IMG/VR virus record: IMGVR_UViG_3300003272_000012
Location: 16,966 to 80,965 of that record
Direction: 5' to 3' (one strand)
Source of the DNA: a virus
Length of the DNA: 64,000 nt
Positions 11,129 through 61,397 of this stretch are shown here, piece by piece. Every line of letters begins with the position of its first letter. Position 1 is the stretch's first letter. The position numbers were made by a program, and so were the translations under genes. The notes beneath the pieces are model-generated. The model saw nothing but the letters and a program-made list of their open reading frames with translations, made no database searches and was not told where the DNA came from.

Positions 11129-11130
11129 TC

Positions 11131-11604: not shown

Positions 11605-11611
11605 GTGTGTT

Positions 11612-33884: not shown

Positions 33885-33886
33885 GC

Positions 33887-34081: not shown

Positions 34082-34084
34082 GGT

Positions 34085-35338: not shown

Positions 35339-35957
35339 CACAAAATGGGTATATCGCGGTTTTGGGCATTGGAAGGAGTTTCCTGTAGATAGCCCAGAAG
35401 CCCTCGCCTACCAGAAAGCGCTGAATGGGATGTTGCCCAAGTGGCGTGAACGTCGTGAGCTGGAGTTCAGAACTTGGCATGCACGTCATACACAGCTGAT
35501 GGCTCAGCGGGCGGCACTCGATTGGCAGATGGTTGCATTTAAAGAACCCGTTGTTGATCTGTATAAGGCGCTCGCACCAGACTATCGTGATTGGGTACTA
35601 GAAGCAGATGGTCGCGACGAATGTGTTCGGTCACAAATGGTGGCGTTGGACCGGATTATCCCGACACAAGACGATGTAAATCTAGAATTGGTGCGGTGGT
35701 ATAAACGTAGTGGGTATACTCGAGATACACAGAACAAGTTACCGCTAGGATTGCGATTTGATGGTAGTGACGATGTGTATCTGATCAATGGGCATCACCG
35801 GTATGCAGCTGCAATTGATAGGGCACATGGTGCGCATAAAACGATGTATATGGATGTCGATAGCATCGATATATCATTTGATGAGGCATGTGGTAATTTA
35901 GAGGACTTCCCGATCAATTTAGTGGAATTATTTGAGCTTCTAACAGAGGTTGCCTAG
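35331..35957 (+). CDS. ParB/sulfiredoxin N-terminal-like domain protein
   Basis: LDRIIPTQ...YLINGHHRYAAA (GHHR motif); no following HTH. Confidence 0.75.
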   Translation: MTNTKWVYRGFGHWKEFPVDSPEALAYQKALNGMLPKWRERRELEFRTWHARHTQLMAQRAALDWQMVAFKEPVVDLYKALAPDYRDWVLEADGRDECVRSQMVALDRIIPTQDDVNLELVRWYKRSGYTRDTQNKLPLGLRFDGSDDVYLINGHHRYAAAIDRAHGAHKTMYMDVDSIDISFDEACGNLEDFPINLVELFELLTEVA

Positions 35958-36862: not shown

Positions 36863-37794
36863 GCCATTTCTTTATTTCTTACAGTCGAAAAAACAGCGCT
36901 GATGTTGAGAAGCTTGAACTTAAAATGCAAGAAGAAGGCATACTTGTGTGGACAGATCGACGCATTGAAGCTGGGGAGGAATGGCGCAAAATGATCGATC
37001 TAGCAATTGAAGATTCAATTGGCGTCATACTTATTGTTTCTGAATACTCAATTAAGTCAAAGTATGTCGATTATGAATGGTCATATGCAATGGGAAAAGG
37101 CAAAAAAATTATCCCTGTTGCGATAGATGTTACCAGTGAGAGCGATGACGATGTTCATCCGAAACTATCTCCTATCCAGTGGATTAAAGTCCTAAATGAC
37201 CCACTTGGATGGCAAGATGAATTGGTTGATAAGCTAAAACATTTGGCAGGAGTTGTTGAGGACTTTCCACCGCATATTCAGAATGCTGTTAAGTTATTTG
37301 ATAGTCTTGAGAAAAGTGACTGGAAAAAGGCGGTCGAATTTCTCAAGCAAAATCGTTCTCCTTATGCAATTGATGCACTTGCGTTAGGTTGTCATCATGA
37401 TACCTACGGAGTGCGAGAGGCGTGTGGGTTGTACTTTGTAAGGAACATGGATAAAAGAGGTATTCCCATAATCGAGGAAATTTATGGCACACTTGAGGTA
37501 AAACGAACTTCAAATCCAAGTCATTTGCCATTTATTCGGAAATTCAAGATTTCGAGTGTACAAAAAAATATTATCGATTTTATTGAACACAGTGATAGAA
37601 AGCACGCAGAAAACCCAACGAAATACGATCGATATGCGAATTTGAATGTGATAAATAGAATTATTGCAACACTTGAGCACATTATAACTGAAGACGGAAT
37701 CGAAGAATTGCGAAGTGCATCTGTGCAACTTGAGTCTGATGGGCTTTGGAAAAGGCAAGTCGACTCTATGTTATCAAAGTTCAATGCTGAATAA
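36859..37794 (+). CDS. TIR domain protein with HEAT-like C-terminus
   Basis: FFISYSRKN...WTDRRIEAGEEW...SKYVDYEWSYA (putative catalytic Glu). Confidence 0.9.
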   Translation: MSHFFISYSRKNSADVEKLELKMQEEGILVWTDRRIEAGEEWRKMIDLAIEDSIGVILIVSEYSIKSKYVDYEWSYAMGKGKKIIPVAIDVTSESDDDVHPKLSPIQWIKVLNDPLGWQDELVDKLKHLAGVVEDFPPHIQNAVKLFDSLEKSDWKKAVEFLKQNRSPYAIDALALGCHHDTYGVREACGLYFVRNMDKRGIPIIEEIYGTLEVKRTSNPSHLPFIRKFKISSVQKNIIDFIEHSDRKHAENPTKYDRYANLNVINRIIATLEHIITEDGIEELRSASVQLESDGLWKRQVDSMLSKFNAE

Positions 37795-37882
37795 ATCAAA
37801 AACCACCCGGTGTAGACGGGCGGTTGTTGAAAAGGTCAAGGGCATGTGCCCTACGATGTGATTGTATCACAGGAAAGGAAAT

Positions 37883-38689
37883 ATGATGAATATTGCGGTT
37901 ACTAATCGTAAAGGTGGTGTTGGCAAGAGCACCATGAGTTTGCATCTAGCTAGTGGGTTGGCAACACTTGGTTATCGGGTTGCACTTGTTGATACTGATA
38001 GCCAAGGGCATGTATCGTTATCACTGGATTTGCCGGAGACTGATGGATTATATCGTGCGCTGGTTAATGATGAACCTATCGAAGATATTGTGATTTCCGT
38101 TGAAAAAGATGCGTATTCCCCTGCTGATAATCCGGCAAAAGGTCATTTATTTGTGATTCCGGCAGAGGATAAGACATATCAGATTTCTAGTCATATTGAG
38201 CAACAGCCCTTTAAGTTTTTGAACTTCACGGATGATTTGAAAAAGGTGCTTAATCTGCACTTTGTTGTGATTGATACTAGCCCTACTATTAAAGATTTGG
38301 ACAGCCAGATTTTTATGGCAACAGATGGTTATCTGTATGTGTCTGAAGCTGAGAAATTGTCACGGCATGGTGTTGAAAAAGCAATCAAACAAATGAGTGG
38401 CTTGGTGAATGATCGTGTCCGTCACTTACGTCGCCCTACGACTGTACTAGGTGTTTTGCCTAATAAAGTACGTAATACAGACAGCCACATCTATAATCTA
38501 GAAGAGATGGAAGCTGCTTATGGTAAATATATGCTTGACCCTATCCGTCTGAGAACAGCATGGAGTGAGGCATCGGTGTATACCGAGACATTATTCACAT
38601 ATGCACCAACCAGTGAAGCAGCAAAAGAAGCATGGCGAATGATTCAACAAGTTGTGGAGGCGGTAAACGCATGGCATCAGACAAAATGA
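37883..38689 (+). CDS. parA: ParA/Soj family ATPase
   Basis: NRKGGVGKST deviant Walker A, VDTDSQG, IDTSP; probable start at about 37883-37886. Confidence 0.92.
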   Translation: MMNIAVTNRKGGVGKSTMSLHLASGLATLGYRVALVDTDSQGHVSLSLDLPETDGLYRALVNDEPIEDIVISVEKDAYSPADNPAKGHLFVIPAEDKTYQISSHIEQQPFKFLNFTDDLKKVLNLHFVVIDTSPTIKDLDSQIFMATDGYLYVSEAEKLSRHGVEKAIKQMSGLVNDRVRHLRRPTTVLGVLPNKVRNTDSHIYNLEEMEAAYGKYMLDPIRLRTAWSEASVYTETLFTYAPTSEAAKEAWRMIQQVVEAVNAWHQTK

Positions 38690-39432
38690 GAAAAGATCGC
38701 AAAAAGGGTAAGTCTACTGGTAACTTAACACAGTCAGACATTATGGATAATATGCTGAGTGGGAATATGGTTGAAATCCCTGATCCAATGGCATTTAATC
38801 AGATGGGGTTATCGTCGGCAATTGTCAAACATGATGATGGTGCGCTAGAAATCAATAGTATTAAGGTACATCGGACTGGGCTCGAATTCGTCGGTAGCGT
38901 CACAGAAGAAGATTATCAATTATTTGGTGAAACACTACTGCAGATTGAAACAGCATATCAATGGATTGTCGGTGATTATCTGGCATATGGTGTTGATAAT
39001 AACTATGGTATGGCTAAGGAGTTTGCTGAGAAATTGGGGCGCGATCCATCAACTGTTCGAGATTGGACATATGTATGCAATCAGATTGAATTATCGTACC
39101 GGTACGATAATCTTAGTTTTAAACATCATCGTATGGTTGCGCCAATGGATAGCCAACAACAGAAATATTGGCTTAGAGAAGCATCTGAGAATAGATGGAG
39201 TACATCAAAGTTACAGAAAATGATTGCAGAAGCACAGGGTGATGCATTACCTGCAAAGGTAACCGAGCCAATGTATAAGAAGTGGGCTGAGCAATCTCAA
39301 AACCGTGTAGAATTGGCAGTTGAAAAATATCAAGGTGAAACTGATGGGCGCAAGAGAAATGCTTGGAAGCGGTATATTGAGTCAGAGGTTGAGCGTTGGC
39401 AACAGGCATTAGCTAGTCTTGAGGATAAATAA
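38632..39432 (+). CDS. LmbU-like DNA-binding protein
   Basis: QWIVGDYLAYG...STVRDWTYVC...LSFKHHRMVA...WLREA...WSTSKL resembles the LmbU family signature. Confidence 0.65.
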   Translation: MANDSTSCGGGKRMASDKMRKDRKKGKSTGNLTQSDIMDNMLSGNMVEIPDPMAFNQMGLSSAIVKHDDGALEINSIKVHRTGLEFVGSVTEEDYQLFGETLLQIETAYQWIVGDYLAYGVDNNYGMAKEFAEKLGRDPSTVRDWTYVCNQIELSYRYDNLSFKHHRMVAPMDSQQQKYWLREASENRWSTSKLQKMIAEAQGDALPAKVTEPMYKKWAEQSQNRVELAVEKYQGETDGRKRNAWKRYIESEVERWQQALASLEDK

Positions 39433-39434
39433 CT

Positions 39435-40247
39435 GTGGGTGTGCCTCAACTGACATTAGCAAAAATCAGGGGATATGCTCGATATTGGGCTGAGAATTTC
39501 ATATCAGGTGAAATAAGCAACCAATTTAGTGAAGGTAATCTGGCGCGGATTGGGGCGTACATTGGACAGGATCTCGGGTATGATCTAGCTGATTTTCTAG
39601 GAACTACTCCTCAGGATTCACACCTCGCGCGAGTTATTGTCGATGGTACTGAATATACTGGTTATAAACGTGGTGAAGTCTTTGATGCAATTAGAACATT
39701 TAGATCTGCAATGAGATCATTGGGTTATGTTTCACTAGATTATAGAGAACGAGAAGTCTTATCGTCAAAGTGCATTGAATTACTCGATGAAAAACCTCTA
39801 GCAAATATTAATATCTTTATCTCGTATCGCCGTGCTGAAAGTAGTCTCCTTGCGTTATATTTACAAGCACGATTTAGGAATGTAGGTGGTGAAGCATTCG
39901 TTGATGTCAATAGTTTAAAACTCGGTGACCCATGGCATTCTGCTTTAGAGGAAAAAGTAAAATCTAGTGCTAATTTTGTTTGTTTGATTGGACCATCGAC
40001 ACTCGAATCAGCATATGTTCGCCAAGAAATTGAATGGGCAATTGAAGCAAATGTTACCATCATTCCAGTGATGCATGATGGATTTAACGCAGAGGATAGC
40101 CTCAATAAAATGCTAGTTGAGAAGCACCCCTTTTTAGAAAAAATTACACAGAAACATGGGCATGTAATCACTGAAAATGACAACCCAAATGCGTACCGAA
40201 ACGCAGCTGATGAGATCCTGACGAGCCTTGGTTATGCGGTATTGTAA
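39435..40247 (+). CDS. TIR domain protein (C-terminal TIR)
   Basis: IFISYRRAES...FVDVNSLKLGDPW...SAYVRQEIEWA. Confidence 0.9.
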   Translation: MGVPQLTLAKIRGYARYWAENFISGEISNQFSEGNLARIGAYIGQDLGYDLADFLGTTPQDSHLARVIVDGTEYTGYKRGEVFDAIRTFRSAMRSLGYVSLDYREREVLSSKCIELLDEKPLANINIFISYRRAESSLLALYLQARFRNVGGEAFVDVNSLKLGDPWHSALEEKVKSSANFVCLIGPSTLESAYVRQEIEWAIEANVTIIPVMHDGFNAEDSLNKMLVEKHPFLEKITQKHGHVITENDNPNAYRNAADEILTSLGYAVL

Positions 40248-40380
40248 TTAATCTTGATAAGTTATAACCCAATCCTAACTTGGGATAAATCAACTTGCTC
40301 CACGAACTCCCCCACCGTGTAAGGTGCCCCCTCTCGCTATGTAAAAGGCTAGTATTTATGCGGGATAGGGCGGTTGGGAT

Positions 40381-40410
40381 AAAAAAAGAGTGCTGTGATG
40401 GCACTCTTTT
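40381..40410. terminator. bidirectional terminator
   Basis: AAAAAAGAGTGC-TGTGATG-GCACTCTTTT. Confidence 0.7.
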
Positions 40411-40545
40411 GGGTTATGTTGAGAAGGGGGTTGATTAGCTGTTTTGAATAATCATTTGCCCATGGTCAACTTATCATTCCTACCCTACAAAGTCACATAA
40501 ATGTATGCAGAGATGCTAAACCTTGGGTAGACTTAAGATATTGTT

Positions 40546-43500
40546 GTGAGTGGAGAAATATTGATGCAGAATCTGCCGATAATTTTTTATGTCATATTAG
40601 GTTTGGGTATACCTGGGCTTTTTGCATTTGGTCTGAATGTTACTGAAGATCTCGGTCAAGCGACTTTAATTACAGTCGCATATGGATTGATTCTAGTTGT
40701 GGCTGAGTTCATCCGGCAGGTTTGGAATAGAGTACAAGCAGATCTTGCTGACGATGCATCTAACAAAATTATCAAAGCAATCGATCAGTTCTTTTCGACA
40801 GATGAAAAGCGATATCGTGAACAGATGGTTTATAAACATCGAGCTATTGTTACTGAAGGGGTAACGCTACCAGGTGCGGGGAATCTATGGATCCAGAATA
40901 TTTTTGTGCAACTGGATATTATGCATACTGATGATCCCAAGAATGTTGGAGCAGGGTTAATCTCCAAAGAAGAACGAGGTGATGATGCAATAGATATTTG
41001 GTCAGTATTTGAAAAGGATGAATGGTTGCGATGCGCAATTATTGGTCCACCAGGTTCAGGTAAAACAACTCTTCTACATCATATTGTCATTGAAATATGT
41101 GATGACAAACATAAGCGCAAACGCCCTAAACTTATACCGATTTATATCACATTACGACGACATGCATTAACGATCAAGGAGAACCCTGAAGTTGCTTTGT
41201 ATGATTTGGCCGTTGGTGAGAAGTTATTTCGTAATCCGGAGCAGATGCCACCACGTGAATGGTTTGATGCACAATTGGATGCTAACCGCTGTCTGATTTT
41301 GTTTGACGGTCTCGATGAAATTGCGCCGTCATTGCGAGATGATGTTATGACATGGATTGAACAAGTCATGGATGGGAACAATCGTGTACTTATTGCATCG
41401 CGTCCGGGTGGCGCATATTCACAGCGTCATAGTTTGCTTGAAATGAATTTGACGGTGTTCAAACTTTTGGAATTCACACCGGATCAACAACGTGAGTTTA
41501 TTATGCTGTGGTATAAGACGAAAGAAGCTCGGCTACCTAAGCGAGATGCAAAAACCTATCAACGTGCTTTAGAAGAGGCAGAAGATCTCGTTCAAGAGAT
41601 TCAGCGACTACCAGCACTATCACAATTGGCTGTAAACCCACTGTTGTTAACGCTTATCACAAGTGTTAAACAGCCAAGTATTGACTTACCTCGATCCCGC
41701 CCAGATTTGTATGATGAAATTGTTGAAGTATTCCTATGGCGACGAGAAAGTGGGAAGAAGCGTGATGTGCCTAATGATGAAGATTTGCAAGATACCTATG
41801 AATTGAGCAAGAGTCAACGCCGTGAATTGCTTCAATTGCTTGCTTATGAATTAATGAAATGTGGCAAGGAGGATATTGATCTCGATACGGCTAAGGAGAT
41901 CTGGGAATTTGAGATTAGTATGTTGCCCGGTGAAAATAATAAGGTTGAGACGTTACTTCAATACTTTAAAGATAATACTGGTTTTCTGGCGGGGAGTGAA
42001 CATGAGGGTTATCGGTTTGCACACCGATCATTTTTGGAATATTTTTCTGGACATTATGTTGCATCGAAGCAACACGATCAAGATTTGATGCACGAGTTTG
42101 TTACTAATAGTGCATCTGATAGTTTCTTCTGGCATGAAGCTGCATTGCACTTTTGTGAAAGCGGTGCTGATGCCACTAAGATTATCGCTGAATGCATTAT
42201 GAAAGAGAAATCAATTCCACCGTTAGTTCTTGCTATGACGTGTATGGCGTTGAGTAATATTAGAGTGGCGCCTGATGTACGTGAACGCTATAAGGCTTTT
42301 GAGATTGAAAGTTTGAATCATGAAGATCCCGCTATTAGGCGCTGGGTGGCAGAAGCACAGTTACAAGTGCATCTGACTAAGATTGAGAAATCGCTTGGTG
42401 GTGGTCTGTTGTTGGTTGATGGATTCATTACGCAGGCAGAATATCAGTTATTTATAGATGACATGTTGGCACAAAGAATTAGTGTAATTCCTGATCATTG
42501 GGAAACAACAACCTATGAAGGTGATGGTACTGATCCAATGTTAGGTATGCGACACAAGGATGCTGAGATGTTTTGTGACTGGTTAACAGAACGAGATACT
42601 GTTTATGAGTATTTATTGCCAGATCTTCCCATAAATCATGGTGATTTTATAGTTTCCTACCATGTTAATAGTACTGACATTTTTAATACTCGTGCTAATG
42701 CTCTTGCTGGTGCTCGTGCTCGTGCTCTTGATCGTGCTGGTGATCTTGCTGGTGCTGGTGATCTTGTTCGTGCTCTTGATCGTGCTGGTGATCGTGATCT
42801 TGTTCGTGCTGGTGATCGTGTTCTTGATCTTGCTCGTGCTCTTGATCGTGCTGGTGATCTTGCTCGTGCTCTTGCTGGTGCTGGTGCTCTTGATCGTGCT
42901 CTTGATCGTGCTCTTGATCGTGCTGGTGCTCGTGATCTTGCTGGTGATCTTGCTGGTGCTCGTGATCTTGCTCGTGATCTTTCTCGTGCTGGTGCTCGTG
43001 ATCTTGCTCGTGATCTTACTAGCGATCTTGCTCGTGCTCTTGATCTTGATGGTGATCTTTCTCGTGCTCGTGCTCTTGCTGGTGATCTTGCTCGTGATCT
43101 TGCTCGTGCTAGCGATCTTGCTGGTGATCTTGCTCGTGATTTTGCTAGCGATCTTGCTCTTGATCTTGCTCGTGCTCGTGATCTTGCTGGTGATCTTGCT
43201 AGCGATCTTGCTCGTGATCTTGTTGGTGATCTTTCTCGTGCTGGTGCTCGTGATCTTGCTCGTGATCTTACTAGCGATCTTGCTCGTGCTCGTGATCTTG
43301 CTGATGATGTAGAGATAAGGAGAGTAATCGCCTATAGGCTATGTATTGCTATAACCGTCATTTCGAGCAGACACAAGCTAACTGATCACGAAATGATTTT
43401 CGACCCTAGGCTTTCTCAAGTGTTATTACAGGCTATTTTAAGTCAGTATTTAGAAACAATAATTGCATTATGGGGTCAAAATCATAGAACTTATCGCTAC

Positions 43501-43770
43501 TATCAAGCTAGCTTCTTTGAGCTATATATTTTATATCAGGTATCACAAGTTTCTCACCTGATAGATGATGTTAAAAATAAAGCTGGCTTGCTCAATCGAT
43601 ATCGCGAGGATTTGAAAAGCCTTGATCAGGTTAAAGAAGATCTAATTAACTCGTATAAAGCAAATCGTACTATTATCCTCCGTCAAACGGGTGACTTGAA
43701 ACCGACTGAGGCAATTCGGATTGTTAAACGGCGAAAACAGCATGATAAAAATGAGGTGACATCTGATTAA
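40546..43770 (+). CDS. NACHT (STAND) NTPase with N-terminal TM segments, FGE-like remnant and ARDL repeats
   Basis: Walker [40 protein letters not shown]; about 200-aa ARDL tract. Start may be ATG 40564. Confidence 0.9.
42690..43310 (+). repeat. low-complexity coding repeat tract (GATCTTGCT / CGTGATCTT units)
   Basis: Dozens of 9-18 nt degenerate tandem units encoding ARDL/AGDL. Confidence 0.9.
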
Positions 43771-44003
43771 ATGACCTTCACTTTATCAATATTAGCTGTT
43801 GGCTCAATAATTTGTAAATTATCAGTGGTGTCTTTGTCTTGGTGAAGTTGGTGTGTTTGTTGGATATTTCTCACACGCTCCACATAGCGTAAGGTTTGGT
43901 GCACTGGGTTGGGTCGAGTTGCCCAGTGCTTATTGAGTGACATACGGATAAGCATCTCTAAGCGGATCTCTTCGTCGGTTTTGGCAAGGTATGGATTAAA
44001 CAT
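43767..44003 (-). CDS. hypothetical protein
   Basis: 78 aa, coupled to the helicase stop. Confidence 0.5.
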   Translation of the reverse strand: MFNPYLAKTDEEIRLEMLIRMSLNKHWATRPNPVHQTLRYVERVRNIQQTHQLHQDKDTTDNLQIIEPTANIDKVKVI

Positions 44004-46987
44004 TACTGAACCTCTGCTCTACGTTCTTCGATGATCTGATCAATGAGTTCACGGATTTCAATTAAGTGGTCGATGCTGACTTCTTTGCGGCTAACGATTT
44101 GCTTAACTTGCTTGCGCGTCATTTCTGGAATACGTTTTTGCTTAGGCATTTGCACAACATTATCTGGTGCTTTATCTAACTTGGATTGTGCAGGTTTAGG
44201 TGACGGTACCAATACAATGTCTCTGCGTGGGTAGGCGTGGGTCTTTTGGTCGTCAAAGCGCACAGAAATGAGCTTGCCACCATCATCAGCAAAGACATCC
44301 CCCTGTTGGTTAATAGGTTTCACCAGAACACGAATGCCCTTCTCATATGGTGTGATTGCCAGTTCTTTTGGCTCAGCTATTTGGGTTGTTGGTGCTGGAT
44401 CAGGTCCAATCGGTGCATCGTATTGGAAGCGGGATTGGAGTTGCTTGGCTTCGTAATTGTTGAATTTGCCCTTGCGATTGCCTTCCATGATATGAACAGA
44501 GAAAAGGCCTTTGATATGGTCATAGGCGTGGATGATACCATGCTTACGAATGGGTTTAATGGTGACATGTTCACCACGACTGAATTCATCGGGTTCAACG
44601 ACGGTGAATGGTAGTGGTGTGTCGTTGTTATCTTTAAAAGCAGTAACTTCTGCACCTGCCATCGACTGAATGACAGTTAGAGTTGCGCGGACATCTGCGA
44701 GCGCATTGTGAAAGTCGATACCATCGGTATCAACACCTTCTTGTTCGAGCGCTTCTTGAAGTTTCCACCATGCGCCTGCACCATACCGACCAATTTTGTT
44801 GGGGTTATAGGCGACGTAGCGCAACATGGCACAGTGCCAGTCTTTTTGGTGTACGAGATACGGTACGCCGTTGGTGGTGGCTGAGTTATTGACCATCTGG
44901 CGATCAAATTTCATGTTGTAGGCGATGATGGTTTTACCTTTAACAACATCAACTAGGGTTTGGAATACATCACGGAATGTAGGGGCATCGACTAGCATAT
45001 CGTCAGTAATACCGTTTATCTCAGATGCTTTGGCGGACATTTTGTGTTTGACGGGTTTAATAAGTGTGTTGATGAGAGCGTTACCGTCATGGTCGATAAC
45101 AGCAAGTGAAACAATTTCGCCCTGCAGATGAGTGGTTTCGGTATCGAGGATGACGAAGTTTTTATCTGCTAGTAGCTGCTTGGCCCACTTAGCTGCATTT
45201 TCACCTTGTGGTGTTAATTTTGGTTCTTCGATTATTTCTTCTTCATCTGTATCAGCAGGTTGTTCAATGGTTTGTTCAGTTGCTGGTGTGAAGGCTGGAA
45301 GTTCGTAACCTGCATGACCAGGTAAGTGACCGATCAACCAATCTGGACAAACATCTTTGAGTACCACCAAACGATTTTTGGTGCGGGTAACAGCCACAAA
45401 CCAGACATATGTTTCGTCGATTGGGTTGGCGGTAACACGTGGTTCATTGGCTACTTTGCTGATGCGAAAATCGTCATAAAGGATAACGGTATCAAACTCC
45501 ATGCCTTTGGACTTATGGGCAGTCATCAACTTGATGATATGTGATCCAGCGTCTTTAACTTCAGTAAATAGGTCGTTGATTCTGGATTTAAGATCATCGA
45601 GATTGGTAGCGGGATGGTGATGCGATGAAGCAGTATGGCGTTCAACAATGACACGTAGGGCATCCAATGTATCGGCGAAGGCTTCGATTTCTTTCTCGTC
45701 CATCATTTTCTTGGTCATGCGTTCGACGTGCATGAGTTTGTATTTCTGGATGGTGTCGATTAGATTATTAAAGGTATACCCAGTGGTATCTGCAACTTTA
45801 TCAAGTAGGCGGGTGAGTTGTTTACCAATGTCACGACCTAGGACAGTTGCGGGAATGTCTGCACCAATGAGATCGAGGCACATACGAACGAGTGGGGCAG
45901 TTGTGCGAGCAATGATTGCAATTTCACCATCATTCTCATTACGGGTTTTAATGACCTCGGTGAGAGTGTCAGGATGTTTGTATTCAATTACACCCTCTTT
46001 ATCGAAAAACGGCTGTAACGACGGTTTAACCATATTGGCTAATCGCACTACACGACGTGGGCAACGGAAGGTGGCTGATAACGGAAAAACAGTTGCATTA
46101 AAATATTTGATGACGCGCTGAAATGACCCCGGCATAGCACCCTTAAAATTCATGATGGACTGACTCGGGTCTCCGACTATGACAACATAGCCACCATTGC
46201 GAACACATTTACTAAGTAGACGCAGTTCCATCTCGCTAATGTCTTGGGCTTCATCGATGAAGAGATATTGGGTCTGCCATGGGCGTAAGTTCCATTTGAC
46301 GGTGTAATAAACTTGATCAGTAAACGTCATCCAAAGTTCAGTTTCAATAACTTTTTCACCAAGGCTCATAAAAGCTTGCAAATTATCTAAACCAAAGTTT
46401 TTGATTTCATCATTGATGGCTTCCGCTTTAATATCATCTTCAATATCAACACTCGGTTCAAAGTCATACTGGTCGATAAGGCGAACCAGTGCTTTGATGT
46501 CGGTGTTATTCGTCATGGTGACTTGTGTTTTGACAACGAGTTCATCCATGAATTTGATGGCATCGTATTTGCAGTTGTCGGGGATGAGCAGGGCAGAGAT
46601 ACCATAGTCGTTGAAGTAGTCGCCCTCAAAGGCTTTAGCAGCTAGTTTTTTGTACTTTGCACCATCTGCGCCCATCTCGTCGAATGTCGGCTGGCGACCG
46701 ATACGGTTCTTCAATTCTTTGCGCATCGTTGACCATGCGATACTGTTAAAGGTCTTAGCATCAAAATTACTGTCTTTAAGCTTCTCATTTAGGTCTTTAC
46801 GAATGTCTGCACCAAAGCAGGTCATTTGCCCTTTATCCGTGACATATTGTGAAAGCAGGACGAGGGTGGATGATTTGCCACAACCGGGACCGGCTTCGAT
46901 ACCGATCGATTTAAGGTCTTTGGCTTTGATGGCTTCAATCAGCCGTTGTTGTTCAGGTGTTGGGTTGAAGGTCATGATATCCCTCAA
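44003..46987 (-). CDS. UvrD/Rep-like SF1 helicase fused to DEDDh 3'-5' exonuclease
   Basis: GPGCGKS, DEAQD, VGDPSQSI, TAHKSKGMEF, AVTRTK; then ILDTETT...HNALAD; two small C-terminal beta domains. Confidence 0.9.
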   Translation of the reverse strand: MRDIMTFNPTPEQQRLIEAIKAKDLKSIGIEAGPGCGKSSTLVLLSQYVTDKGQMTCFGADIRKDLNEKLKDSNFDAKTFNSIAWSTMRKELKNRIGRQPTFDEMGADGAKYKKLAAKAFEGDYFNDYGISALLIPDNCKYDAIKFMDELVVKTQVTMTNNTDIKALVRLIDQYDFEPSVDIEDDIKAEAINDEIKNFGLDNLQAFMSLGEKVIETELWMTFTDQVYYTVKWNLRPWQTQYLFIDEAQDISEMELRLLSKCVRNGGYVVIVGDPSQSIMNFKGAMPGSFQRVIKYFNATVFPLSATFRCPRRVVRLANMVKPSLQPFFDKEGVIEYKHPDTLTEVIKTRNENDGEIAIIARTTAPLVRMCLDLIGADIPATVLGRDIGKQLTRLLDKVADTTGYTFNNLIDTIQKYKLMHVERMTKKMMDEKEIEAFADTLDALRVIVERHTASSHHHPATNLDDLKSRINDLFTEVKDAGSHIIKLMTAHKSKGMEFDTVILYDDFRISKVANEPRVTANPIDETYVWFVAVTRTKNRLVVLKDVCPDWLIGHLPGHAGYELPAFTPATEQTIEQPADTDEEEIIEEPKLTPQGENAAKWAKQLLADKNFVILDTETTHLQGEIVSLAVIDHDGNALINTLIKPVKHKMSAKASEINGITDDMLVDAPTFRDVFQTLVDVVKGKTIIAYNMKFDRQMVNNSATTNGVPYLVHQKDWHCAMLRYVAYNPNKIGRYGAGAWWKLQEALEQEGVDTDGIDFHNALADVRATLTVIQSMAGAEVTAFKDNNDTPLPFTVVEPDEFSRGEHVTIKPIRKHGIIHAYDHIKGLFSVHIMEGNRKGKFNNYEAKQLQSRFQYDAPIGPDPAPTTQIAEPKELAITPYEKGIRVLVKPINQQGDVFADDGGKLISVRFDDQKTHAYPRRDIVLVPSPKPAQSKLDKAPDNVVQMPKQKRIPEMTRKQVKQIVSRKEVSIDHLIEIRELIDQIIEERRAEVQ

Positions 46988-47166
46988 AATATTGGACTAT
47001 TTGTTTGTTGTACATGTGTATTGCTCCGACAAAATTGTGTGTGTGAGTGACTGAATATGACAAATAAAGTATGATATACTTTATATAATCAGTATACTTG
47101 ATTACGATATGAAAATCAAGCAGTGTGGCATACAAAACCCATTGACTATAAGAGGTATATAGAGGG

Positions 47167-49230: not shown

Positions 49231-49290
49231 ACAAAATGCGGCTTGTGCGACTGACCCAGACAGAAATACCCCGTGAAAGCGGGGCATTTT
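49231..49290 (+). ncRNA. unidentified conserved RNA motif plus terminator, copy 2
   Basis: ACAAAATGCGGCTTGTGCGACTGACCCAGACAGAAATAC-hairpin-TTTT; matches 17550-17611 on the minus strand. Confidence 0.55.
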
Positions 49291-49991: not shown

Positions 49992-51935
49992 ATGATTAGC
50001 AGCTTAAGACTTGATGGTTGTCTTCTATTAGTAGAAGATGAAAATGGAGACTGGCATGAGGTTGGTGACTTATCCCAATGTGATCCGCTTTATAATCAAA
50101 CTGGTGGTGGTGATGGCAATCAGAAGCGTTGTAATATAGCAACACGGCTAGTAGATCCGTATCTGAAAGACTTGTTTTATAAAACACTACTTGAATATGA
50201 AGCAAATCAGAATGACTCAGAAGATCTTATTATTGCCCTTGGTGCAGTTGCTGTCACTGTCGGAGGGACAATACTTACTGCTGGTGTTGGAACAATATCT
50301 TCGGCTATCGTCATGGCAGTTGCCTATGCAGGTAAAACAGTGGTCAGTGCTGGATTAATTGGCGCTGGTATATATGCAAGTGTAGACCCGACTGAGGTAT
50401 TGGTTAATGTTTTAAATGAAACAGACTACGTGCTAGCACGAAATGAAGCAGACATTCCGCAGTTTTGGGCTGATGTAAGGCAGATGATTTATTGTGCAAC
50501 TCCTGCCAATGGTCAAATTACTCTTGAGACAATGGCAATTTATGCTGATTTGATCGAATCATTGACTGCATATCCGCAAGCCTCAAAAGTACTTGCTACT
50601 ATGATAAGGGTTAACAATATTGAGGCTCCAATTAGTGTGGCTCAGTTTGGAGCGCGTCTCGAGAGTGATTTGTTTGATTGCCAGTCAACTAATTGTATAG
50701 AAATGTGTGATTTGATACTTGATACGGAAAAGTCTCCAGTAGGTAGCTCGGTCATACGAAAAGCCAACACTGAGAGTACGTGGATTGTCACTAGTGCTCC
50801 TGATGAAAACCAACAACACAAAGTAGTTGTTAAATCTCGTGGTTCGTCAATACCACTGTATCTCAACACAATTAACTATAGTGGTAGTGTTGTACCAAGT
50901 GTCATTAATTATGAATTAGTTGAGCCTTTGAACGATAATAGAACAACTGTCATACCCTATACCAAAAAGGATCAGGTAGAAAATCGTCAATTTACCCGTT
51001 TAACTTTCTATAGTCATCAGGAACTCCAAATGGAAATTGATATTGATGATTGTCGTGAAGAAGAACAAGAACCAGACTCAGAGCAACCTTGCGCCTTGTT
51101 TGTCGGGGAGACATATGGTGAAAGTCCGATACCATCCGGTACATACGGCGCATACGATAATGTATTTGTACTTTTTGATGGACAACGCGTATCTGATGTT
51201 GACGGTTGGCGCACCTATTATCTCAGCGATGCTGATAGTTGCTGTTCTTTAATTCAATTGCCAATTTCGCCTGCAGATGAAGTCCCCCCACCTGATCCTC
51301 CAGAATATGGTATCTTGCCAAGTGAGATAGAATATAAAGATTGCACAGGGTCTGATTGGCTCCCGTTGTCTGAACTTCCGAAAGATGAAAATGCGCCGCT
51401 TAACTTTAATGCGATTCGCTTCAAGGGTAGCTATGCGATTCAGGTAGCACTTATCAATCCAGCTATCAATTGGCCATATGTATCAGACTTTGCGGATAGC
51501 AAAAATAGCTGGGTGCCGGAAGACCTAGACGGAAATGATACTGCAATATATGATGACGGCAATTGGCGGTATGCTGATGTAAATTACGAAGTAGTCAACT
51601 ATGGGCGTTTTTTGTCAATGTCGGTTAATTTTGCGACACCTGTATTTGTTAGTGAGTTTACCATAAACTATGATTTTACCCCTACTTCATATCCATTCCC
51701 TAACCAAGTAATAAGAACCTTCTATCAGGGTAATCAAACGTCAGAAGCGCGACAGGATAATGCTAGCGGTACTGGCTTGTCAATGACAGTAAACCCCAAT
51801 GAGTTGGTGGATAAGCTTAATATATGGTTTAGAACCTCGATTGCAAATAATCCAACCGATGGCTATGCTGGTAATATTGTGATCAATAGCATCACTGTAA
51901 ATGGTAATGGCCCATTCCCAACAGAGTTAACATGA
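49992..51935 (+). CDS. large hypothetical protein (Cys-containing, beta-rich C-terminus; possibly virion or surface protein)
   Basis: 647 aa with AAGGAG RBS; hydrophobic segment at about aa 80-125; followed by a terminator at about 51983-52008. Confidence 0.7.
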   Translation: MISSLRLDGCLLLVEDENGDWHEVGDLSQCDPLYNQTGGGDGNQKRCNIATRLVDPYLKDLFYKTLLEYEANQNDSEDLIIALGAVAVTVGGTILTAGVGTISSAIVMAVAYAGKTVVSAGLIGAGIYASVDPTEVLVNVLNETDYVLARNEADIPQFWADVRQMIYCATPANGQITLETMAIYADLIESLTAYPQASKVLATMIRVNNIEAPISVAQFGARLESDLFDCQSTNCIEMCDLILDTEKSPVGSSVIRKANTESTWIVTSAPDENQQHKVVVKSRGSSIPLYLNTINYSGSVVPSVINYELVEPLNDNRTTVIPYTKKDQVENRQFTRLTFYSHQELQMEIDIDDCREEEQEPDSEQPCALFVGETYGESPIPSGTYGAYDNVFVLFDGQRVSDVDGWRTYYLSDADSCCSLIQLPISPADEVPPPDPPEYGILPSEIEYKDCTGSDWLPLSELPKDENAPLNFNAIRFKGSYAIQVALINPAINWPYVSDFADSKNSWVPEDLDGNDTAIYDDGNWRYADVNYEVVNYGRFLSMSVNFATPVFVSEFTINYDFTPTSYPFPNQVIRTFYQGNQTSEARQDNASGTGLSMTVNPNELVDKLNIWFRTSIANNPTDGYAGNIVINSITVNGNGPFPTELT

Positions 51936-52047
51936 TATTTGAGCTATATCAATAATTAAGTTAAACATAGTACATAAAATTCAAACCCCTCACATTGTGA
52001 AGGGTTTGGTTGGATATATCCATGCCCGCGGAGTTTAAAAGCTGAAT

Positions 52048-52575
52048 CGTGCTATACTGATGTTGAGTTTTTCTTTAACTCCCTATCCTTTAACTGCACA
52101 GCCCTAGCTTGATGTTGCTGGGGTTTTGTGTTTATGGGTTTATAAGTCCAAAACTTTTGTGGTGTGCTATACTGATATTGCGTACCCGACGCTCCTATAA
52201 AGAATTGCACAAGCCTAAGCCTTAAACAGCTTGGGTTTTGTGTTTGTAATGTTAATCATGATATACTAAAAATGAGAATAAGCACTAACCCTCCTAACAC
52301 ACACAGACTCTGGCTCAAATGGCTGGAGTTTTGTGTTTGTAGGGTCAATAGGTCTACAGTTTTCTGCGGAATAGAGGCTGTGATATACTGGCGTGAGTTT
52401 CATTTATGAAACCTCTTCAATCTTTTGAATGCACGAACCCCAGTCCTGACGCTGGGGTTTTGTGTTTATATGGTAAAACTTTGTTGTTATTTGGTTTAAT
52501 GCTATACTGAAATTGAATCCTTACTTCATATGCTCCGCACAAGCCTTAGGTCTCATCCCCTAGGGTTTTGTGTTT
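52048..52575 (+). ncRNA. array of five independently promoted small-RNA units
   Basis: TGn-TATACT at 52053, 52168, 52262, 52384 and 52503. Each is followed by 28-41 variable nt, (G/A)CAC(A/G), a 9-bp stem and invariant GTTTTGTGTTT. Confidence 0.72.
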
Positions 52576-52782
52576 TAAATCTCCCCAATAATATCTATTT
52601 TCATATTGTGGTGACCTGCGATTTTCTGCAAGACATCGGCCGCAAGGTAGCGATGGCAGTTGCATTACGCTATCTTATAGAAATATAATTACTAACCGTT
52701 GGTAAAGGGTAGAAATACTACTCAATATAAAATGATATTATTACTTCTAATTTTTTGCTGTTAGATATAGGTAATTTGATTA

Positions 52783-53715
52783 ATGGACAATAAATCATTC
52801 ATAATTTATCTGCTTCAACCATATGTTACTAGTCGTTTACTTAATATTGCTATTCGAACCCTAGCAGCTGCAAAGCATCTTTCAATACGTGAGACTGAAT
52901 ACTATGTAATGAATCGTATCGAAGGATTAAGTATATCAACAATGAGATCTTGGAAAGGTAATAGACCTCCAAGATCGATAGTATATGGTGATATATTTCT
53001 GAGCTTAGTATGGTTGATATTAACTGATGGTTACTTACGCTTGGGTAATGAGTCACTAGCTACTGAATGGCTAATCGATATATTAAATACAACGGATGTT
53101 GGTCGAGGTAAGCAGTTCACAAGCAATAATTTGCAAGAGTTTGATTCTATTTTTACTAATTATGTCAGGCTCGATGGGAAACCACTAAGCGAAGATCAAT
53201 ATATTGAAGTTATTGTTAGACTAAGGAGTAAATCATTGGATTCAGAGCATAAACACCTTATAGATTTGAGACAAAACGATATTTTTGGACCACCACATGA
53301 TGACCTGCAATATATATGCGATATATTTGTTATTATGCCCTTTGCTGATAAGTTTGAGCCAATTTATACTGACCACATCAAAAAAATCTCTGAAGTGTAT
53401 AACTACACTGTGAAACGTGGTGATAACTTCTTCTCAAAAAGATCAATCATGGCAGATGTTTGGTCAGCAATGGTAAGTTCTAGGTTGGTAATCGCTGACT
53501 GCACTGGTCGTAATGCAAATGTTTTCTACGAGCTTGGGATGGCTCATACATTAAATAAACCAGTAATTACTATTGTTCAAGATCTTAAAGATATACCTTT
53601 TGATATACGGCATATGCGTGTTATTGAATATAAACATTCATATAGTGGTATGCTCCAATTGGAGATTGATCTGGGGGATGCGTTTGAAACTATGATGCCT
53701 GAAGAAGGTGATTAG
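52783..53715 (+). CDS. nucleoside 2-deoxyribosyltransferase-like (TIR-fold) domain protein with N-terminal putative DNA-binding domain
   Basis: IFVIMPF...RLVIADCTGRNANVFYELGMAHTLNKPVI...IPFDIRHMRVIEY. Confidence 0.82.
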   Translation: MDNKSFIIYLLQPYVTSRLLNIAIRTLAAAKHLSIRETEYYVMNRIEGLSISTMRSWKGNRPPRSIVYGDIFLSLVWLILTDGYLRLGNESLATEWLIDILNTTDVGRGKQFTSNNLQEFDSIFTNYVRLDGKPLSEDQYIEVIVRLRSKSLDSEHKHLIDLRQNDIFGPPHDDLQYICDIFVIMPFADKFEPIYTDHIKKISEVYNYTVKRGDNFFSKRSIMADVWSAMVSSRLVIADCTGRNANVFYELGMAHTLNKPVITIVQDLKDIPFDIRHMRVIEYKHSYSGMLQLEIDLGDAFETMMPEEGD

Positions 53716-57422: not shown

Positions 57423-58937
57423 ATGCTTCCACCAACCCTACATAACGAACAGGTTACCCCACAAGAGGCGGCACAAGAATATCTACAGCGACAAGCAGCA
57501 CGTCAGTCGTCTTTGGCGTTCGCACAGTATGTTGATCCCACATATCAAGTCAATGCGTTTTATCGACATCTCAATGGAATGTTAGATAAGGTAATGGCAG
57601 GGGAGATCAAGCGGTTAATGATCTTCGCGCCTCCTCAGCATGGTAAGTCGCGCACCTCGACAGAGATATTTCCTGCACGTTGGATTGGTGAAAATCCGAA
57701 TTTACCTGTGGCAGTGGTGTCGTATGGTGCAACGCCCGCGCAGAAGTTCTCGACCAGCACACGCGATATTATCGAAAGTCCGGAGTATGCGCGGTTGTAT
57801 GGTGACTTGTCGCATATGGGACAGCCGATTAAGATTCGGGAAGATGCGAGGGCAAAAGGTCTATGGCGACTTGGTTACCCACATAAGGGCGGTTTATGGG
57901 CTGGTGGTATCGGTGGGCCGATTACATCACATGGTTTTGGTGGTATTTTGCTAGATGATCCATTTAAAGATTGGAAACAGGCACATTCGCAGGTGTATCG
58001 GCAGTCGGTATATGAATATTATCGCGGAACGCTGATGACACGCTTGTGGCAAGATGGGTGGGTGATCATCATCATGACACGGTGGCATCCAGACGATATT
58101 GCAGGGCGATTACTTGCTGAGGAAGGTGACAAGTGGTGTATTCTGCGGTATCCGGCGATTGCTGAAAGCCAAGAGGAGCGTGACAAGAATAATAAGATGA
58201 TGGGATTGCCGATCGGTGAATCTGATCCACTCGGGCGTGAAGCTGGTGAGGCATTATCTCCTGTGCGTTTTTCGATTGATGGTCTACAAGAAAAGCGTGA
58301 AAATGTTGGTGAGCGAGCATGGGCGAATGAGTATCAGGGTGCACCACGGTTGGCTGACGGTGACATGATTAAGCGCGATTGGTTTGATACTGTGGCGAAA
58401 GTACCGAGTGGTGCAAAGCGTGTTAGATATATCGACAAAGCAGGTACACAAGGGGGTGGAGCTTATACAGCGCTGGTTCTAATGGCAGAATATCACGGTA
58501 CATATTATGTGGAAGATGTTGTCCGTGGGCAATGGTCGGCGCATCAACGTGAAGAGATCATCCACAAGACGATTAAGCGAGATACTCAGCTGTATGGAAA
58601 ATATGTCGCCTATATTGAGCAGGAACCGGGTAGTGGTGGTAAAGAGTCGGCAGAGCATACGATCAAGAAAAATGCGGGGTATCGTATCAAGGCAGATCGT
58701 CCAACAGGTGATAAAGATGCTCGATTACTTCCATTCGCCGATCAAGCTGAGGCAGGGAATGTGTTGCTGGTATCAGGGCTTTGGAATCATGCGTGGTTGG
58801 AAGAGATGACCGCCATCCCCAATGGTACCTTTCGTGACCAAGGGGATGCGACAGCAGGTGCGTTCAATAAGTTGACAGGTAGAAAATCGTCTACAAAAGT
58901 AGGCAGGGCTAGTGGGTTGTATTCGAGTCGAGGTTAG
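57423..58937 (+). CDS. terL: terminase large subunit
   Basis: APPQHGKS Walker A, LLDDPFK Walker B, MTRWHPDD, EYQGAP, RNase H-like C-terminus (YIDKA...DQGDA). Confidence 0.95.
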   Translation: MLPPTLHNEQVTPQEAAQEYLQRQAARQSSLAFAQYVDPTYQVNAFYRHLNGMLDKVMAGEIKRLMIFAPPQHGKSRTSTEIFPARWIGENPNLPVAVVSYGATPAQKFSTSTRDIIESPEYARLYGDLSHMGQPIKIREDARAKGLWRLGYPHKGGLWAGGIGGPITSHGFGGILLDDPFKDWKQAHSQVYRQSVYEYYRGTLMTRLWQDGWVIIIMTRWHPDDIAGRLLAEEGDKWCILRYPAIAESQEERDKNNKMMGLPIGESDPLGREAGEALSPVRFSIDGLQEKRENVGERAWANEYQGAPRLADGDMIKRDWFDTVAKVPSGAKRVRYIDKAGTQGGGAYTALVLMAEYHGTYYVEDVVRGQWSAHQREEIIHKTIKRDTQLYGKYVAYIEQEPGSGGKESAEHTIKKNAGYRIKADRPTGDKDARLLPFADQAEAGNVLLVSGLWNHAWLEEMTAIPNGTFRDQGDATAGAFNKLTGRKSSTKVGRASGLYSSRG

Positions 58938-59344
58938 GCGAGTCGAATTGATCGTCGGGCATATGGGATTCGTTTAATTTTACCATGTTGTTCTAAGACC
59001 ATGATATGCCTGCCAACCGTCTGCGGAGCGACTTCACAATCCTCAGCAATTTCTTGTTGTGTTGGGTAATTACCAGATTTGATGTGCAAGTAGATACATT
59101 GGAAGATGCGCTCGCTCAATTGGCTGTAGCGGGGTAGGGGCTTGGATGATGTATTCAGCACTTTGATATTGTCGCCATGACGCTCGATCATGCCGTATTC
59201 TTCTAGCACTCTTAAGTGATGTTGTACTGTTTGGTCTGAGCGGATGTGACAAGCCTCTTTGATCTCATAGAGTTCGGGTGATGTATTGTAGTCCCACAAA
59301 TATGCGTTAATAAATGCGAATACAAGACGGGATTTGGTATTCAT
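58934..59344 (-). CDS. tandem LexA-type winged-HTH protein (no peptidase domain)
   Basis: Two repeats: SPELYEIKEAC...TVQHHLRVLEEYG and YPTQQEIAEDC...TVGRHIMVLEQHG. Confidence 0.8.
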   Translation of the reverse strand: MNTKSRLVFAFINAYLWDYNTSPELYEIKEACHIRSDQTVQHHLRVLEEYGMIERHGDNIKVLNTSSKPLPRYSQLSERIFQCIYLHIKSGNYPTQQEIAEDCEVAPQTVGRHIMVLEQHGKIKRIPYARRSIRLA

Positions 59345-59961
59345 AGATATTCTCGTTAAGTTAGTTTTTTGTTATAAATTTAGCATATTTGTTCTGTTTT
59401 TGCAGTTAGAAGTTGGTTGGAGAAAGGAAAAGCACTCAAATCGGGTTATAATACAGCGCGCTACTCCTGATAGAGGAATAAGCACATTATCAGATAATCC
59501 TAACAATGTCTCTGGGGAAACTTATGGTCAACTTTCTTTGAGATCTTCTTGTGAAAAAACTTCTAATTACTATCAATCTACTTATCTCCAAATCAAAGCT
59601 GATTACCGATAGCATTGTTGGAGTCGTTGATTGATGGGATAGTTAAAGAGTAAATGTGAAATATGAAAAGCTATTGAGAGAAATTGCCAGAAAAAACAAA
59701 CGCTGTTCCAATTGATTAGAACAAATTTTCGTAGTAAGATGACATTCTAAGATATATAACAATAAACAAACGAATTGAAGTTATTTGTGGAGATTGTTGT
59801 ATAAGGTAGAAAACATAAAGCCACTGTTGGAGCAGTGGCCTGTGTTATGAATTATTCCATATGTTGCGATATGGGGTGAAGTATAACAGGTTTATAGATG
59901 TTGACCAGTATGTGTTCAATATCAAGTTAACTTACCTAAATTCAGTTCAATTGGAGGTCAC

Positions 59962-60515: not shown

Positions 60516-61397
60516 ATGACACAGACATACAACGACAATGTTGTCATTAATGACACACTTGAAGTAAATGGTACATCAGATACTGTTCAAGTTGCGGTGA
60601 AGGGTGCTGCTAATCAATCAGATGCACTGCAACAATGGCAAGATCATTCAGGAAATGTGTTTGCTGAAATAGATGCTGATGGTCATTTACTAATTGGGGA
60701 TCAAGATGATACACCAGAGGCATTAATCGAAGCTCACAATCTAGATGATGTGTATAAACCGTCACGTGGCTTACATCTTCGCGGTATTCTCTCAGGCACA
60801 TTGAGTCATCTCATTAGTTGGGTTGTTCAAGAGCTTGCACTAAAAGGAACTGGTGGGTTATCTGCTTTACATCGTGTACTGCGGGTGCACGCAACCAATG
60901 AAAATACAGGTCCAATGGAAGTCGGAGCGGAAATTCGTGCTGGTGATTTTGAAGTGACCAATGTCGGTGGTAATCCAGATACCAACAACCTTGAGATGAG
61001 TGCAGTTGTCGCTAAGGTGAATAACGACTCATCTGCTCATTTGCAGACAGCATATGGTGTCAAGGTTGATATGAGTGTTCCAGAAGGATCGGCGAGTGAT
61101 GTCTACTCAGTTTATACAGAAGGTGGCACAGTTTATATTGGTGATAGTGAAATCTATGCACCATTGAATCTCAGTCCACGTTCAACAGCCCCGTCAGCAC
61201 CTCGAGATAATGATATTTATCTAGATATAAGCAGCGATCCAAATCAACCCCGATTACGACAATATAGTCAAACCGAAGATGTTTGGTTAGACATCAGTGG
61301 AACTGGGTCAACATTTGATCCAGAAGTTGATGGATATTGGTCGAATTATGGTGGGTATTTTGTATTTTCAGATGGCGATTATGTATCTCAGTCATGA
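60516..61397 (+). CDS. fibre-like / phage-tail-like protein
   Basis: Beta-rich; contains QWQDHSGNVFAEIDADG and PSAPRDNDIYLD modules also present in 62165. Confidence 0.6.
   Translation: MTQTYNDNVVINDTLEVNGTSDTVQVAVKGAANQSDALQQWQDHSGNVFAEIDADGHLLIGDQDDTPEALIEAHNLDDVYKPSRGLHLRGILSGTLSHLISWVVQELALKGTGGLSALHRVLRVHATNENTGPMEVGAEIRAGDFEVTNVGGNPDTNNLEMSAVVAKVNNDSSAHLQTAYGVKVDMSVPEGSASDVYSVYTEGGTVYIGDSEIYAPLNLSPRSTAPSAPRDNDIYLDISSDPNQPRLRQYSQTEDVWLDISGTGSTFDPEVDGYWSNYGGYFVFSDGDYVSQS

Follow-up and report, generated by a model that had tools for sequence, protein, structure and literature searches.

The stretch of DNA analysed here, referred to as the window, is 64,000 nucleotides (nt) long and represents bases 16966-80965 of the 97.8-kb IMG/VR virus record IMGVR_UViG_3300003272_000012. 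Five tandem units are found on its plus strand at 52050-52575, in the gap between the gene of a 647-amino-acid (aa) protein, which ends at 51935, and that of a 310-aa protein, which starts at 52783. Every unit consists of an extended -10 promoter box, a body that differs from copy to copy and a terminator-like hairpin, and a sixth, diverged unit is found dispersed elsewhere in the window. The best explanation, which we put forward tentatively, is that the locus represents six small non-coding RNA genes, five tandem and one dispersed, that are transcribed independently into base-pairing small RNAs (sRNAs) with C-rich anti-Shine-Dalgarno (SD) seeds, similar to those of the LhrC and RsaE type.

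The source of the phage record is a coral metagenome. Positions 51500-53100 are also spanned by an independent Logan contig of that sample, with 0 differences to the window; thus the array is not an assembly artefact.

Anatomy of the tandem units

All five units, with the elements listed for them in an earlier sequence-only reading of the window (the original prediction), are found at the places given there. The extended -10 box TGNTATACT (TGMTATACT) starts at 52050, 52165, 52259, 52381 and 52500 (+), so that each unit has the box predicted for it, and the window displays 11 such boxes where 2.3 are expected from shuffled sequences. The same box precedes protein genes that have an SD sequence and an ATG, at 49632 (-) and 13567 (+), and it is an ordinary promoter type of this phage. 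There is no -35 element conserved among the units; promoters of the extended -10 class do not need one. A conserved TGAGT-like start region is present 4-5 bases past the box. It is followed by bodies of 28-41 nt that are mutually dissimilar across the units. The spacing of the units is irregular (112, 93, 129 and 108 nt), and the gaps of 13-42 nt between the end of a unit and the next promoter are unconserved. The predicted RNAs are 61-72 nt long, within the 60-75 nt first estimated, and have fold z-scores of -2.5 to -5.6 relative to shuffles.

The 3′ module of each unit is 37-39 nt long and closes with the tail GTTTTGTGTTT. As originally described, this tail is invariant: it is found exactly in all five units, at 52123, 52235, 52328, 52457 and 52565, with no further exact copy in the window, and its count was reached in 0 of 100 shuffles. 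Five terminator-like hairpins, all on the same strand, are present in the array, against 1.0 expected from shuffles. They have 9-11 bp, each is directly followed by TTTTGTGTTT, and by sequence they qualify as intrinsic terminators. These hairpins sit 55-66 nt past the -10 boxes, and the predicted RNA 3′ ends fall in the UUUUGUGU tract. In RNAfold models the UGUGU of the tail is the pairing partner of GCAC(A/G), thus the module forms one 14-15-bp hairpin with a U bulge of 1-2 nt. The original prediction presented (G/A)CAC(A/G), the stem and the tail as separate parts; its 9-base stem arms are correct, but GCAC(A/G) forms the 5′ strand of a lower helix with the tail.

The stem was also described as covarying. 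Pairing is indeed kept: in a model-based alignment 94% of the stem cells are standard pairs, compared with 27-62% after the 3′ strand is displaced by 1-3 columns. The covariation itself is modest, with only two pairs (3 cells) changed on both sides and four more changed on one side, a level matched by 21 of 500 shuffles. It should be noted that these counts are lowered by unit 3, whose stem has one extra base pair and is shifted by one base in the alignment. The stem arms appear to be diverged copies whose differences are mostly compensated, and the support for this is real but modest. A covariance model, termed R1, was built on the 3′ module of the five units. In the phage it detects the five copies at 45-58 bits, and all else scores below 14 bits.

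A protein-coding reading of the gap was rejected. Six-frame translation of 51936-52783 shows all three kinds of stop codon in every frame on both strands, no recoding rescues any frame, and leaderless peptides starting at NTG are inconsistent between units. With a box and a hairpin in each unit and no open frame, the array is as it was first portrayed, a set of autonomous promoter-to-terminator units that is not CRISPR-like.

The coordinates of the units and of the features around them are in Table 1. The sixth unit is situated in a 1.1-kb divergent intergenic region between the open reading frames (ORFs) 58934-59344 (-) and 60516-61397 (+), and it might just as well act as a leader or attenuator for the 136-aa gene that lies about 450 nt downstream. 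Approximately 20 terminator-like hairpins are found in the phage, and among these CAC.../...UGU flanks are displayed only by the array units and the sixth unit.

Table 1. Array units and surrounding features in window coordinates. RNA extents, folds and layouts are predictions; z is the fold score relative to shuffles.
Feature	Coordinates	Strand	-10 box	Predicted RNA	Layout or remark	R1 (bits)	Fold z
Unit 1	52050..52133	+	TGCTATACT 52050-52058	~52065-52133, 69 nt	5′ hairpin, CUCCCU-containing single strand, terminator module 52096-52133	50.7	-4.75
Unit 2	52165..52245	+	TGCTATACT 52165-52173	~52180-52245, 66 nt	short 5′ hairpin, CUCCU, terminator module 52207-52245	58.3	-3.44
Unit 3	52259..52338	+	TGATATACT 52259-52267	~52274-52338, 65 nt	unstructured body with CCCUCCU, terminator module 52301-52338	45.4	-2.52
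Unit 4	52381..52467	+	TGATATACT 52381-52389	~52396-52467, 72 nt	two small 5′ hairpins flanking CCUCUU, terminator module 52431-52467	49.8	-5.61
Unit 5	52500..52575	+	TGCTATACT 52500-52508	~52515-52575, 61 nt	unstructured body, CUCC at its end, terminator module 52537-52575	53.3	-3.23
Sixth unit (diverged, dispersed)	59797..59888	-	TGTTATACT 59880-59888		~34-nt body with 5′ hairpin and CACCCC; 3′ part 59809-59845, ACACAGG-stem-loop-stem-CUUUAUGUUUU	13.7 (E 1.2; weak alone)	
Gene of 647-aa Cys-rich protein (upstream neighbour)	49992..51935	+			no known family; unlinked to array		
12-bp hairpin	51982..52008				ends upstream 647-aa gene; left border of array; conserved with the 647-aa homolog of locus L023		
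Gene of 310-aa protein (downstream neighbour)	52783..53715	+			C-terminal ~140 aa match TIR/NDT-like effector models; unlinked to array		

Variable bodies and a possible mode of action

Conservation between the units is restricted to blocks. Pairwise identity is 73% in the block of the promoter and transcription start and 74% in the terminator, while that of the bodies and of the inter-unit spacers is at the level of shuffled sequences. The bodies are nonetheless distinct from the spacers in composition: they have 6% G and 31% C, whereas the untranscribed spacers have 25% G and 9% C, a contrast not expected from neutral drift of a duplicated unit. The original prediction remarked on CTCC or CCTC in the variable parts, and each of the five bodies does contain either CUCC or CCUC; the probability of this by chance is ~3e-6 by genome sampling and 3e-4 by composition-matched shuffling, for a motif that was picked post hoc.

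In predicted folds units 3 and 5 leave the CUCC/CCUC motif fully unpaired, and in units 1, 2 and 4 the motif overlaps with a small hairpin at the 5′ end. Thus the small 5′ hairpin proposed for the variable parts is seen in units 1, 2 and 4, but units 3 and 5 are unstructured. The reverse complement of unit 4 was thought to read like a ribosome-binding site plus ATG. This reading needs correction: that sequence is largely the reverse complement of the unit's own palindromic 5′ hairpin. SD sequences are used by the phage genes: an SD-like motif is found upstream of 32 of 90 long phage ORFs, compared with a background of 11%.

In the proposed mode of action, host RNA polymerase would read each unit separately from the extended -10 promoter, starting at the conserved (U)GAGU and stopping 60-72 nt further on at the strong intrinsic terminator. 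The RNA between these points would differ in each copy but would always be G-poor and pyrimidine-rich, and its CUCC/CCUC core is predicted to be single-stranded in whole or in part. Most likely these RNAs would pair with the purine-rich SD and start-codon regions of different mRNAs and so block translation, as do LhrC, RsaE/RoxS and the streptococcal csRNAs. The host or competing mobile elements, and not the phage itself, would provide the targets.

The closest functional parallel is LhrC. Each of the five LhrC genes has its own promoter and terminator, and four of the five are adjacent; the wider class of C-rich anti-SD sRNAs includes RsaE/RoxS, FsrA, RNAIII and the streptococcal csRNAs. The LhrC RNAs (LhrC1-5) of Listeria monocytogenes are G-poor and multicopy and block the SD sequence via CUCCC/UCCC motifs, and UCCC is typical of C-rich anti-SD sRNAs (PMC4132741). 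G-poor RNAs that occlude the SD sequence in this manner are an established class, and this is the basis for the explanation preferred here, as a functional analogy and not as homology. Both systems have sibling sRNA genes that specify G-poor RNAs of the same order of size, with CU-rich motifs that bind the SD sequence (pairing of the array RNAs is by analogy), and both have the order 5′ hairpin, single-stranded seed, terminator. However the LhrC siblings are homologous over their full length and have common targets, whereas the array units are conserved only in the start region and terminator, with bodies that are unrelated except for the CUCC core. The array is also carried by a phage, with a host in the Chloroflexota, and is known here from its sequence alone.

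Phage background and flanking genes

The virus record has an estimated completeness of 92%. The nearest homologs of its large terminase are in metagenomic contigs (65-79% identity; loci L026-L034), and among named genomes the nearest are in Anaerolineae metagenome-assembled genomes (MAGs; 53-54% identity). Thus the guess of the original prediction that this is a Chloroflexota phage holds, and its hosts would be bacteria of the Anaerolineae type. The window encodes tail proteins including the tape measure, a DnaB-type helicase and the large terminase, as well as a ParA ATPase and a DNA methylase with a ParB domain. The phage looks plasmid-like, as ParA is present and no integrase was seen. Positions 32571-47000 form an accessory block that resembles a defence island, with two TIR proteins around ParA, a NACHT ATPase, a pentapeptide-repeat protein and a 994-aa GajB-like UvrD helicase fused to a DEDDh (RNase T) exonuclease. 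The array itself is located in a plastic accessory region, with orphan or defence-type neighbours and with packaging genes downstream.

The Cys-rich protein encoded upstream of the array has no family, no PADLOC match and no Atlas look-alike, and a host-genome search with an alignment of this protein found nothing. A homolog with 43% identity is found at positions 10001-11914 of locus L023, a 572-kb bacterial contig, where its neighbours are TIR-FHA, Imm11 and TnpB genes and the same terminator hairpin follows its stop codon. The homolog and the common hairpin suggest a recent exchange between phage and host-like chromosomes. In the phage the T-run of this hairpin (51982-52008) is better on the minus strand.

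The C-terminal domain of the 310-aa protein (approximately residues 170-310) matches a PADLOC TIR-effector model and, weakly, the Pfam Nuc_deoxyrib_tr model. It is widespread in Chloroflexota, with 491 matches, and is found fused to TIR, REC, DUF4062, YukD, TPR and integrase domains. The flanking genes had been proposed as partners of the RNAs, but no array is found with the 647-aa homologs that were examined (L023-L025) or with the one full-length 310-aa homolog (L140, L141).

Other features of the phage are recorded for completeness. In the full record (G000:C1), at ~13860-14090 and thus ~2.9-3.1 kb upstream of the window start, are two stretches that resemble tRNA 3′ halves, each with a T-arm and acceptor strand and one with a GGTTCGAATCC-type T-loop. 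ARAGORN called no tRNA anywhere in the phage genome, and the two stretches could represent attP-type fragments of tRNAs or tRNA genes that have degenerated. A motif ACAAAATGCGGCTT..GACCCAGACAGAAA followed by a terminator occurs twice, at 17550-17611 (-) and 49231-49290 (+). It is a real repeat, but it differs in sequence from the units and was rejected as a member of the array family.

Relatives, targets and rival explanations

Several lines of evidence weigh against the interpretation of the units as base-pairing sRNAs, and most of them are searches without a match. Relatives were sought in ~1.9 Mb of related phage loci and in 151 Anaerolineae genomes. R1 finds nothing in 246 kb around the homologs of the terminase (L026-L034) and of the 647-aa protein (L023-L025), nothing in 1.0 Mb of 80 terminase-related IMG/VR loci, nothing in 0.68 Mb around homologs of the ParB-methylase (80 loci), nothing beside the one full-length 310-aa homolog and, at E <= 1e-4, nothing in the 151 genomes. 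No relative was obtained by blastn against phage and plasmid collections. A tandem-tail pattern has 18 matches in IMG/VR, all of which are microsatellites or coding repeats, and a promoter-plus-tail pattern has 20 matches in metagenome contigs that are due to chance or to ordinary terminators, the best of them (L047, L050) being ordinary gene-end terminators. A generic scan of all the related loci for clusters of at least 3 terminators shows no comparable array. Rfam has no family that matches at the gathering threshold, and only chance-level matches are seen at a lenient one; the relation to known sRNAs is thus one of working alike and not of family membership. As far as these collections go, the unit family is confined to this phage. 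The original prediction named a lack of conservation of the units in related genomes as a point that would speak against it, and this lack is observed in all that were searched. A full-text literature search found no paper on small RNAs of phages that infect Chloroflexota.

The target searches add to this. The longest antisense runs between the bodies and the 97.8-kb phage are 10-12 nt with Watson-Crick pairs and 12-15 nt with G-U pairs, equal to those of shuffled bodies. The best duplex energies with 208 phage start regions equal the shuffled minima. By eye, the original prediction had likewise found no convincing target in the window. Complementarity in 3.3 Mb of related phage and Anaerolineae loci is also no better than for shuffles. 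A 24-mer of unit 3 has 0 matches with up to 3 mismatches in 401 Anaerolineae genomes, and core 20-mers of units 2, 3 and 5 have 0 exact matches in IMG/VR. A lack of target complementarity above chance was another outcome that had been said to tell against the prediction, and it applies to all sequences searched. Of the proposal that the units are antisense sRNAs on translation starts, then, the G-poor, C-rich bodies with CUCC fit, but no target stands above chance in the sequences searched. In addition, the sequencing runs that contain this DNA are DNA runs of a single coral study, with no RNA run among them, and the CUCC motif was selected after the sequences had been seen. Finally, the invariance of the tail and of GCAC exceeds what a terminator needs and could reflect sequence-specific recognition by a protein. 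The target results argue against CRISPR-like guides with long perfect matches, and short sRNA seeds directed at the host would still fit them. As the host is not identified and relatives are sparse, the lack of conservation and targets weakens the claim of an RNA system but does not refute the sRNA interpretation.

Other known systems were compared with the array. In 2021 Pearl Mizrahi et al. reportedly described tandem prophage sRNA arrays of the PasB/EcOnc type in Stx prophages. These are similar to the units in being diverged tandem sRNA genes, each with promoter and terminator, in a phage intergenic gap; however they have no sequence relation to the array, and PasB is validated and conserved in many prophages, whereas the array is in one phage record. 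Small phage-encoded RNAs that steer translation of a phage gene by pairing are also known: c4 pairs at a ribosome-binding region and its seed differences set immunity specificity, and P4 CI RNA and P22 sar are further phage immunity antisense RNAs. The C4 antisense RNA regulates expression of ant in the immI region of P1 (PMC8201110). For the array this likeness is by analogy only. Moreover c4 is a single RNA that is processed from an operon transcript and has cis targets, whereas for the array no target was found in the phage and there is no Rfam match. In the PeSL cassettes of T4-type phages the hairpin is beside or over the promoter, followed by an SD sequence and an ORFan (Arbiol et al. 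2010, PMC2839356). The array resembles these in its repeated cassettes of a strong sigma-70-type promoter and a terminator hairpin within a plastic accessory part of a phage genome. The location in a plastic region agrees (TIR, NACHT, GajB-like helicase, TIR/NDT-like effector), but the stem-loop/SD/ORFan layout is absent, and the array hairpin is predicted to end the unit's own transcript of 60-72 nt, which has no ORF. The units were therefore not assigned to the PeSLs.

Constant and variable segments of ~30-40 nt upstream of a putative effector gene are shared with CRISPR arrays, with the solitary repeats of RNA anti-CRISPRs and with type III toxin-antitoxin systems. The array modules, however, are 66-79% identical, are spaced by 93-129 nt and each have their own promoter and terminator. 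A CRISPR array or solitary-repeat RNA was rejected because there are no near-identical regular repeats and no matches to foreign DNA (in the phage and related loci for all units, in IMG/VR for units 2, 3 and 5, and in the 401 genomes for unit 3). In type III toxin-antitoxin systems a single promoter drives near-identical RNA repeats, an endoribonuclease toxin is encoded downstream, and the linkage is conserved. A ToxIN-like system was rejected as well, since each unit has a promoter and a terminator, the neighbour is TIR/NDT-like, and those homologs of the neighbour that were examined are without an array.

The conserved parts of the array are exactly the promoter and terminator blocks, with dissimilar bodies, and this is also consistent with a function at the level of DNA or transcription, in which the short RNAs would be by-products. 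Stacked terminators could shield the 310-aa gene and the packaging operon from read-through out of the accessory region, or the promoter/terminator blocks could be now-empty, PeSL-like recombination scaffolds for moron genes. Such roles would suit the plastic accessory site, with two orphan or defence-type genes around and packaging genes downstream, and the absence from all relatives searched, as for fast-turnover cassettes; PeSLs are themselves repeated cassettes of a strong promoter and a terminator in hyperplastic regions (PMC2839356). However insulation needs one terminator and no promoters, a deleted moron should leave a sense SD sequence (GGAG) and not CUCC, and the stem loop of a PeSL is at or over the promoter and precedes an SD sequence and a gene, whereas the array hairpin is 28-41 nt past the start with no ORF. 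The G content of the bodies (6%, against 25% in the spacers) and the similar RNA lengths point to a constraint on the RNA itself. We regard this account as possible but doubtful. Less probable still is that the units are functionless remnants, either drifted duplicates of a promoter-terminator unit or by-products of recombination, kept as harmless. Their restriction to a single phage lineage, the missing targets and the weak covariation agree with this. Yet both functional blocks are kept in five copies amid neighbouring sequence that is saturated with change, the stem differences are compensated (94% of cells paired, against 27-62% on sliding by 1-3 columns), the composition bias tracks the borders of the transcription units and a motif is common to all five bodies; neutral remnants are hard to square with this block-wise conservation, and we consider them quite unlikely. 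A perfect TGATATACT box is also present at 52930-52938 (-), inside the 310-aa gene and facing the array, and together with the hairpin at 51982-52008 it could delimit an antisense transcript of ~940 nt over the 5′ end of the gene and the five units. The sRNAs would then be cis-antisense partners of a long minus-strand transcript that starts at this box, passes through the array and stops at 52008-51982, at the hairpin whose T-run favours the minus strand; on that strand the array hairpins lack a T-run and so would not stop it. But about 2 of the 11 boxes are expected by chance, this box is inside a coding region, no conserved ORF or other feature is seen on the minus strand, and nothing points to the existence of such a transcript, so that this is the least probable of the explanations and a very improbable one.

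A different possibility is that the RNAs act through a protein, with the lower helix (GCAC/GUGU) and tail as a handle and the variable 5′ part as a guide, decoy or antitoxin. They might restrain the TIR/NDT-like effector, in a manner loosely like type III toxin-antitoxin systems, or belong to an RNA-guided system whose effector has escaped recognition. None of the five tandem units departs from the common GCAC and 11-nt tail, while the upper stem is 20-25% diverged, and of the ~20 terminator-like phage hairpins such flanks are seen only in the array units and the sixth unit; the next gene downstream of the array, on the same strand, encodes a putative toxic effector, and a constant module joined to a variable segment follows the logic of guide arrays. 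On the other hand none of the examined homologs of either flanking gene has such units, type III antitoxin repeats are near-identical under one promoter, unlike the array units, and no protospacer-like matches are found in the phage, in related loci, in the 401 Anaerolineae genomes (unit 3) or in IMG/VR (units 2, 3 and 5). A guide-RNA system, one of the original suggestions, is further disfavoured by the phage itself, in which no TnpB/Cas12f-type domain (the one Cas type searched for), reverse transcriptase or Hfq is encoded. The module also has an ordinary terminator shape. The weak matches that R1 has in the Anaerolineae genome G004 are plain terminators at gene ends, with the form ACACAAAAG-stem-loop-stem-CTTTTGTGTT; thus A-tract/U-tract terminators with G's in the tail occur at ordinary gene ends, at least in G004. 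The constant 3′ hairpin, first suggested to be a protein handle, may be read more simply as an intrinsic terminator. With no array beside the homologs and no effector domains, what is left for the guide, handle and antitoxin ideas is the invariance of GCAC and the tail, and we judge an action through a protein to be unlikely. A bolder version has the array as a modular, multi-specific RNA weapon. In it a constant 3′ scaffold (GCAC/GUGU helix and tail) would be bound by a phage or host protein, and interchangeable 5′ seeds would be aimed at transcripts of competitor phages or of host defence. This would be an RNA immunity array with one promoter per guide, independent of both CRISPR and P1 c4, and its probability is small.

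The terminators of G004 have features of their own. At loci L222-L225 of this Anaerolineae MAG they often have complementary A-tract/U-tract flanks with C/G pairs inside (ACACAAAAG...CTTTTGTGT), and the gene-end terminators are longer, near-perfect palindromes compared with the textbook terminator.

For the present, the array of candidate base-pairing sRNAs is of value as a lead, a clean prediction at the sequence level from one uncultured phage. If the units are expressed, they represent a compact case of a phage with several independently promoted regulators that have a common promoter/terminator chassis and different seeds. Since the array is in a region that resembles a defence island, the RNAs could act in host takeover or in competition between mobile elements. 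The layout suggests that new sRNA specificities may arise by swaps of the body between fixed promoter and terminator modules.

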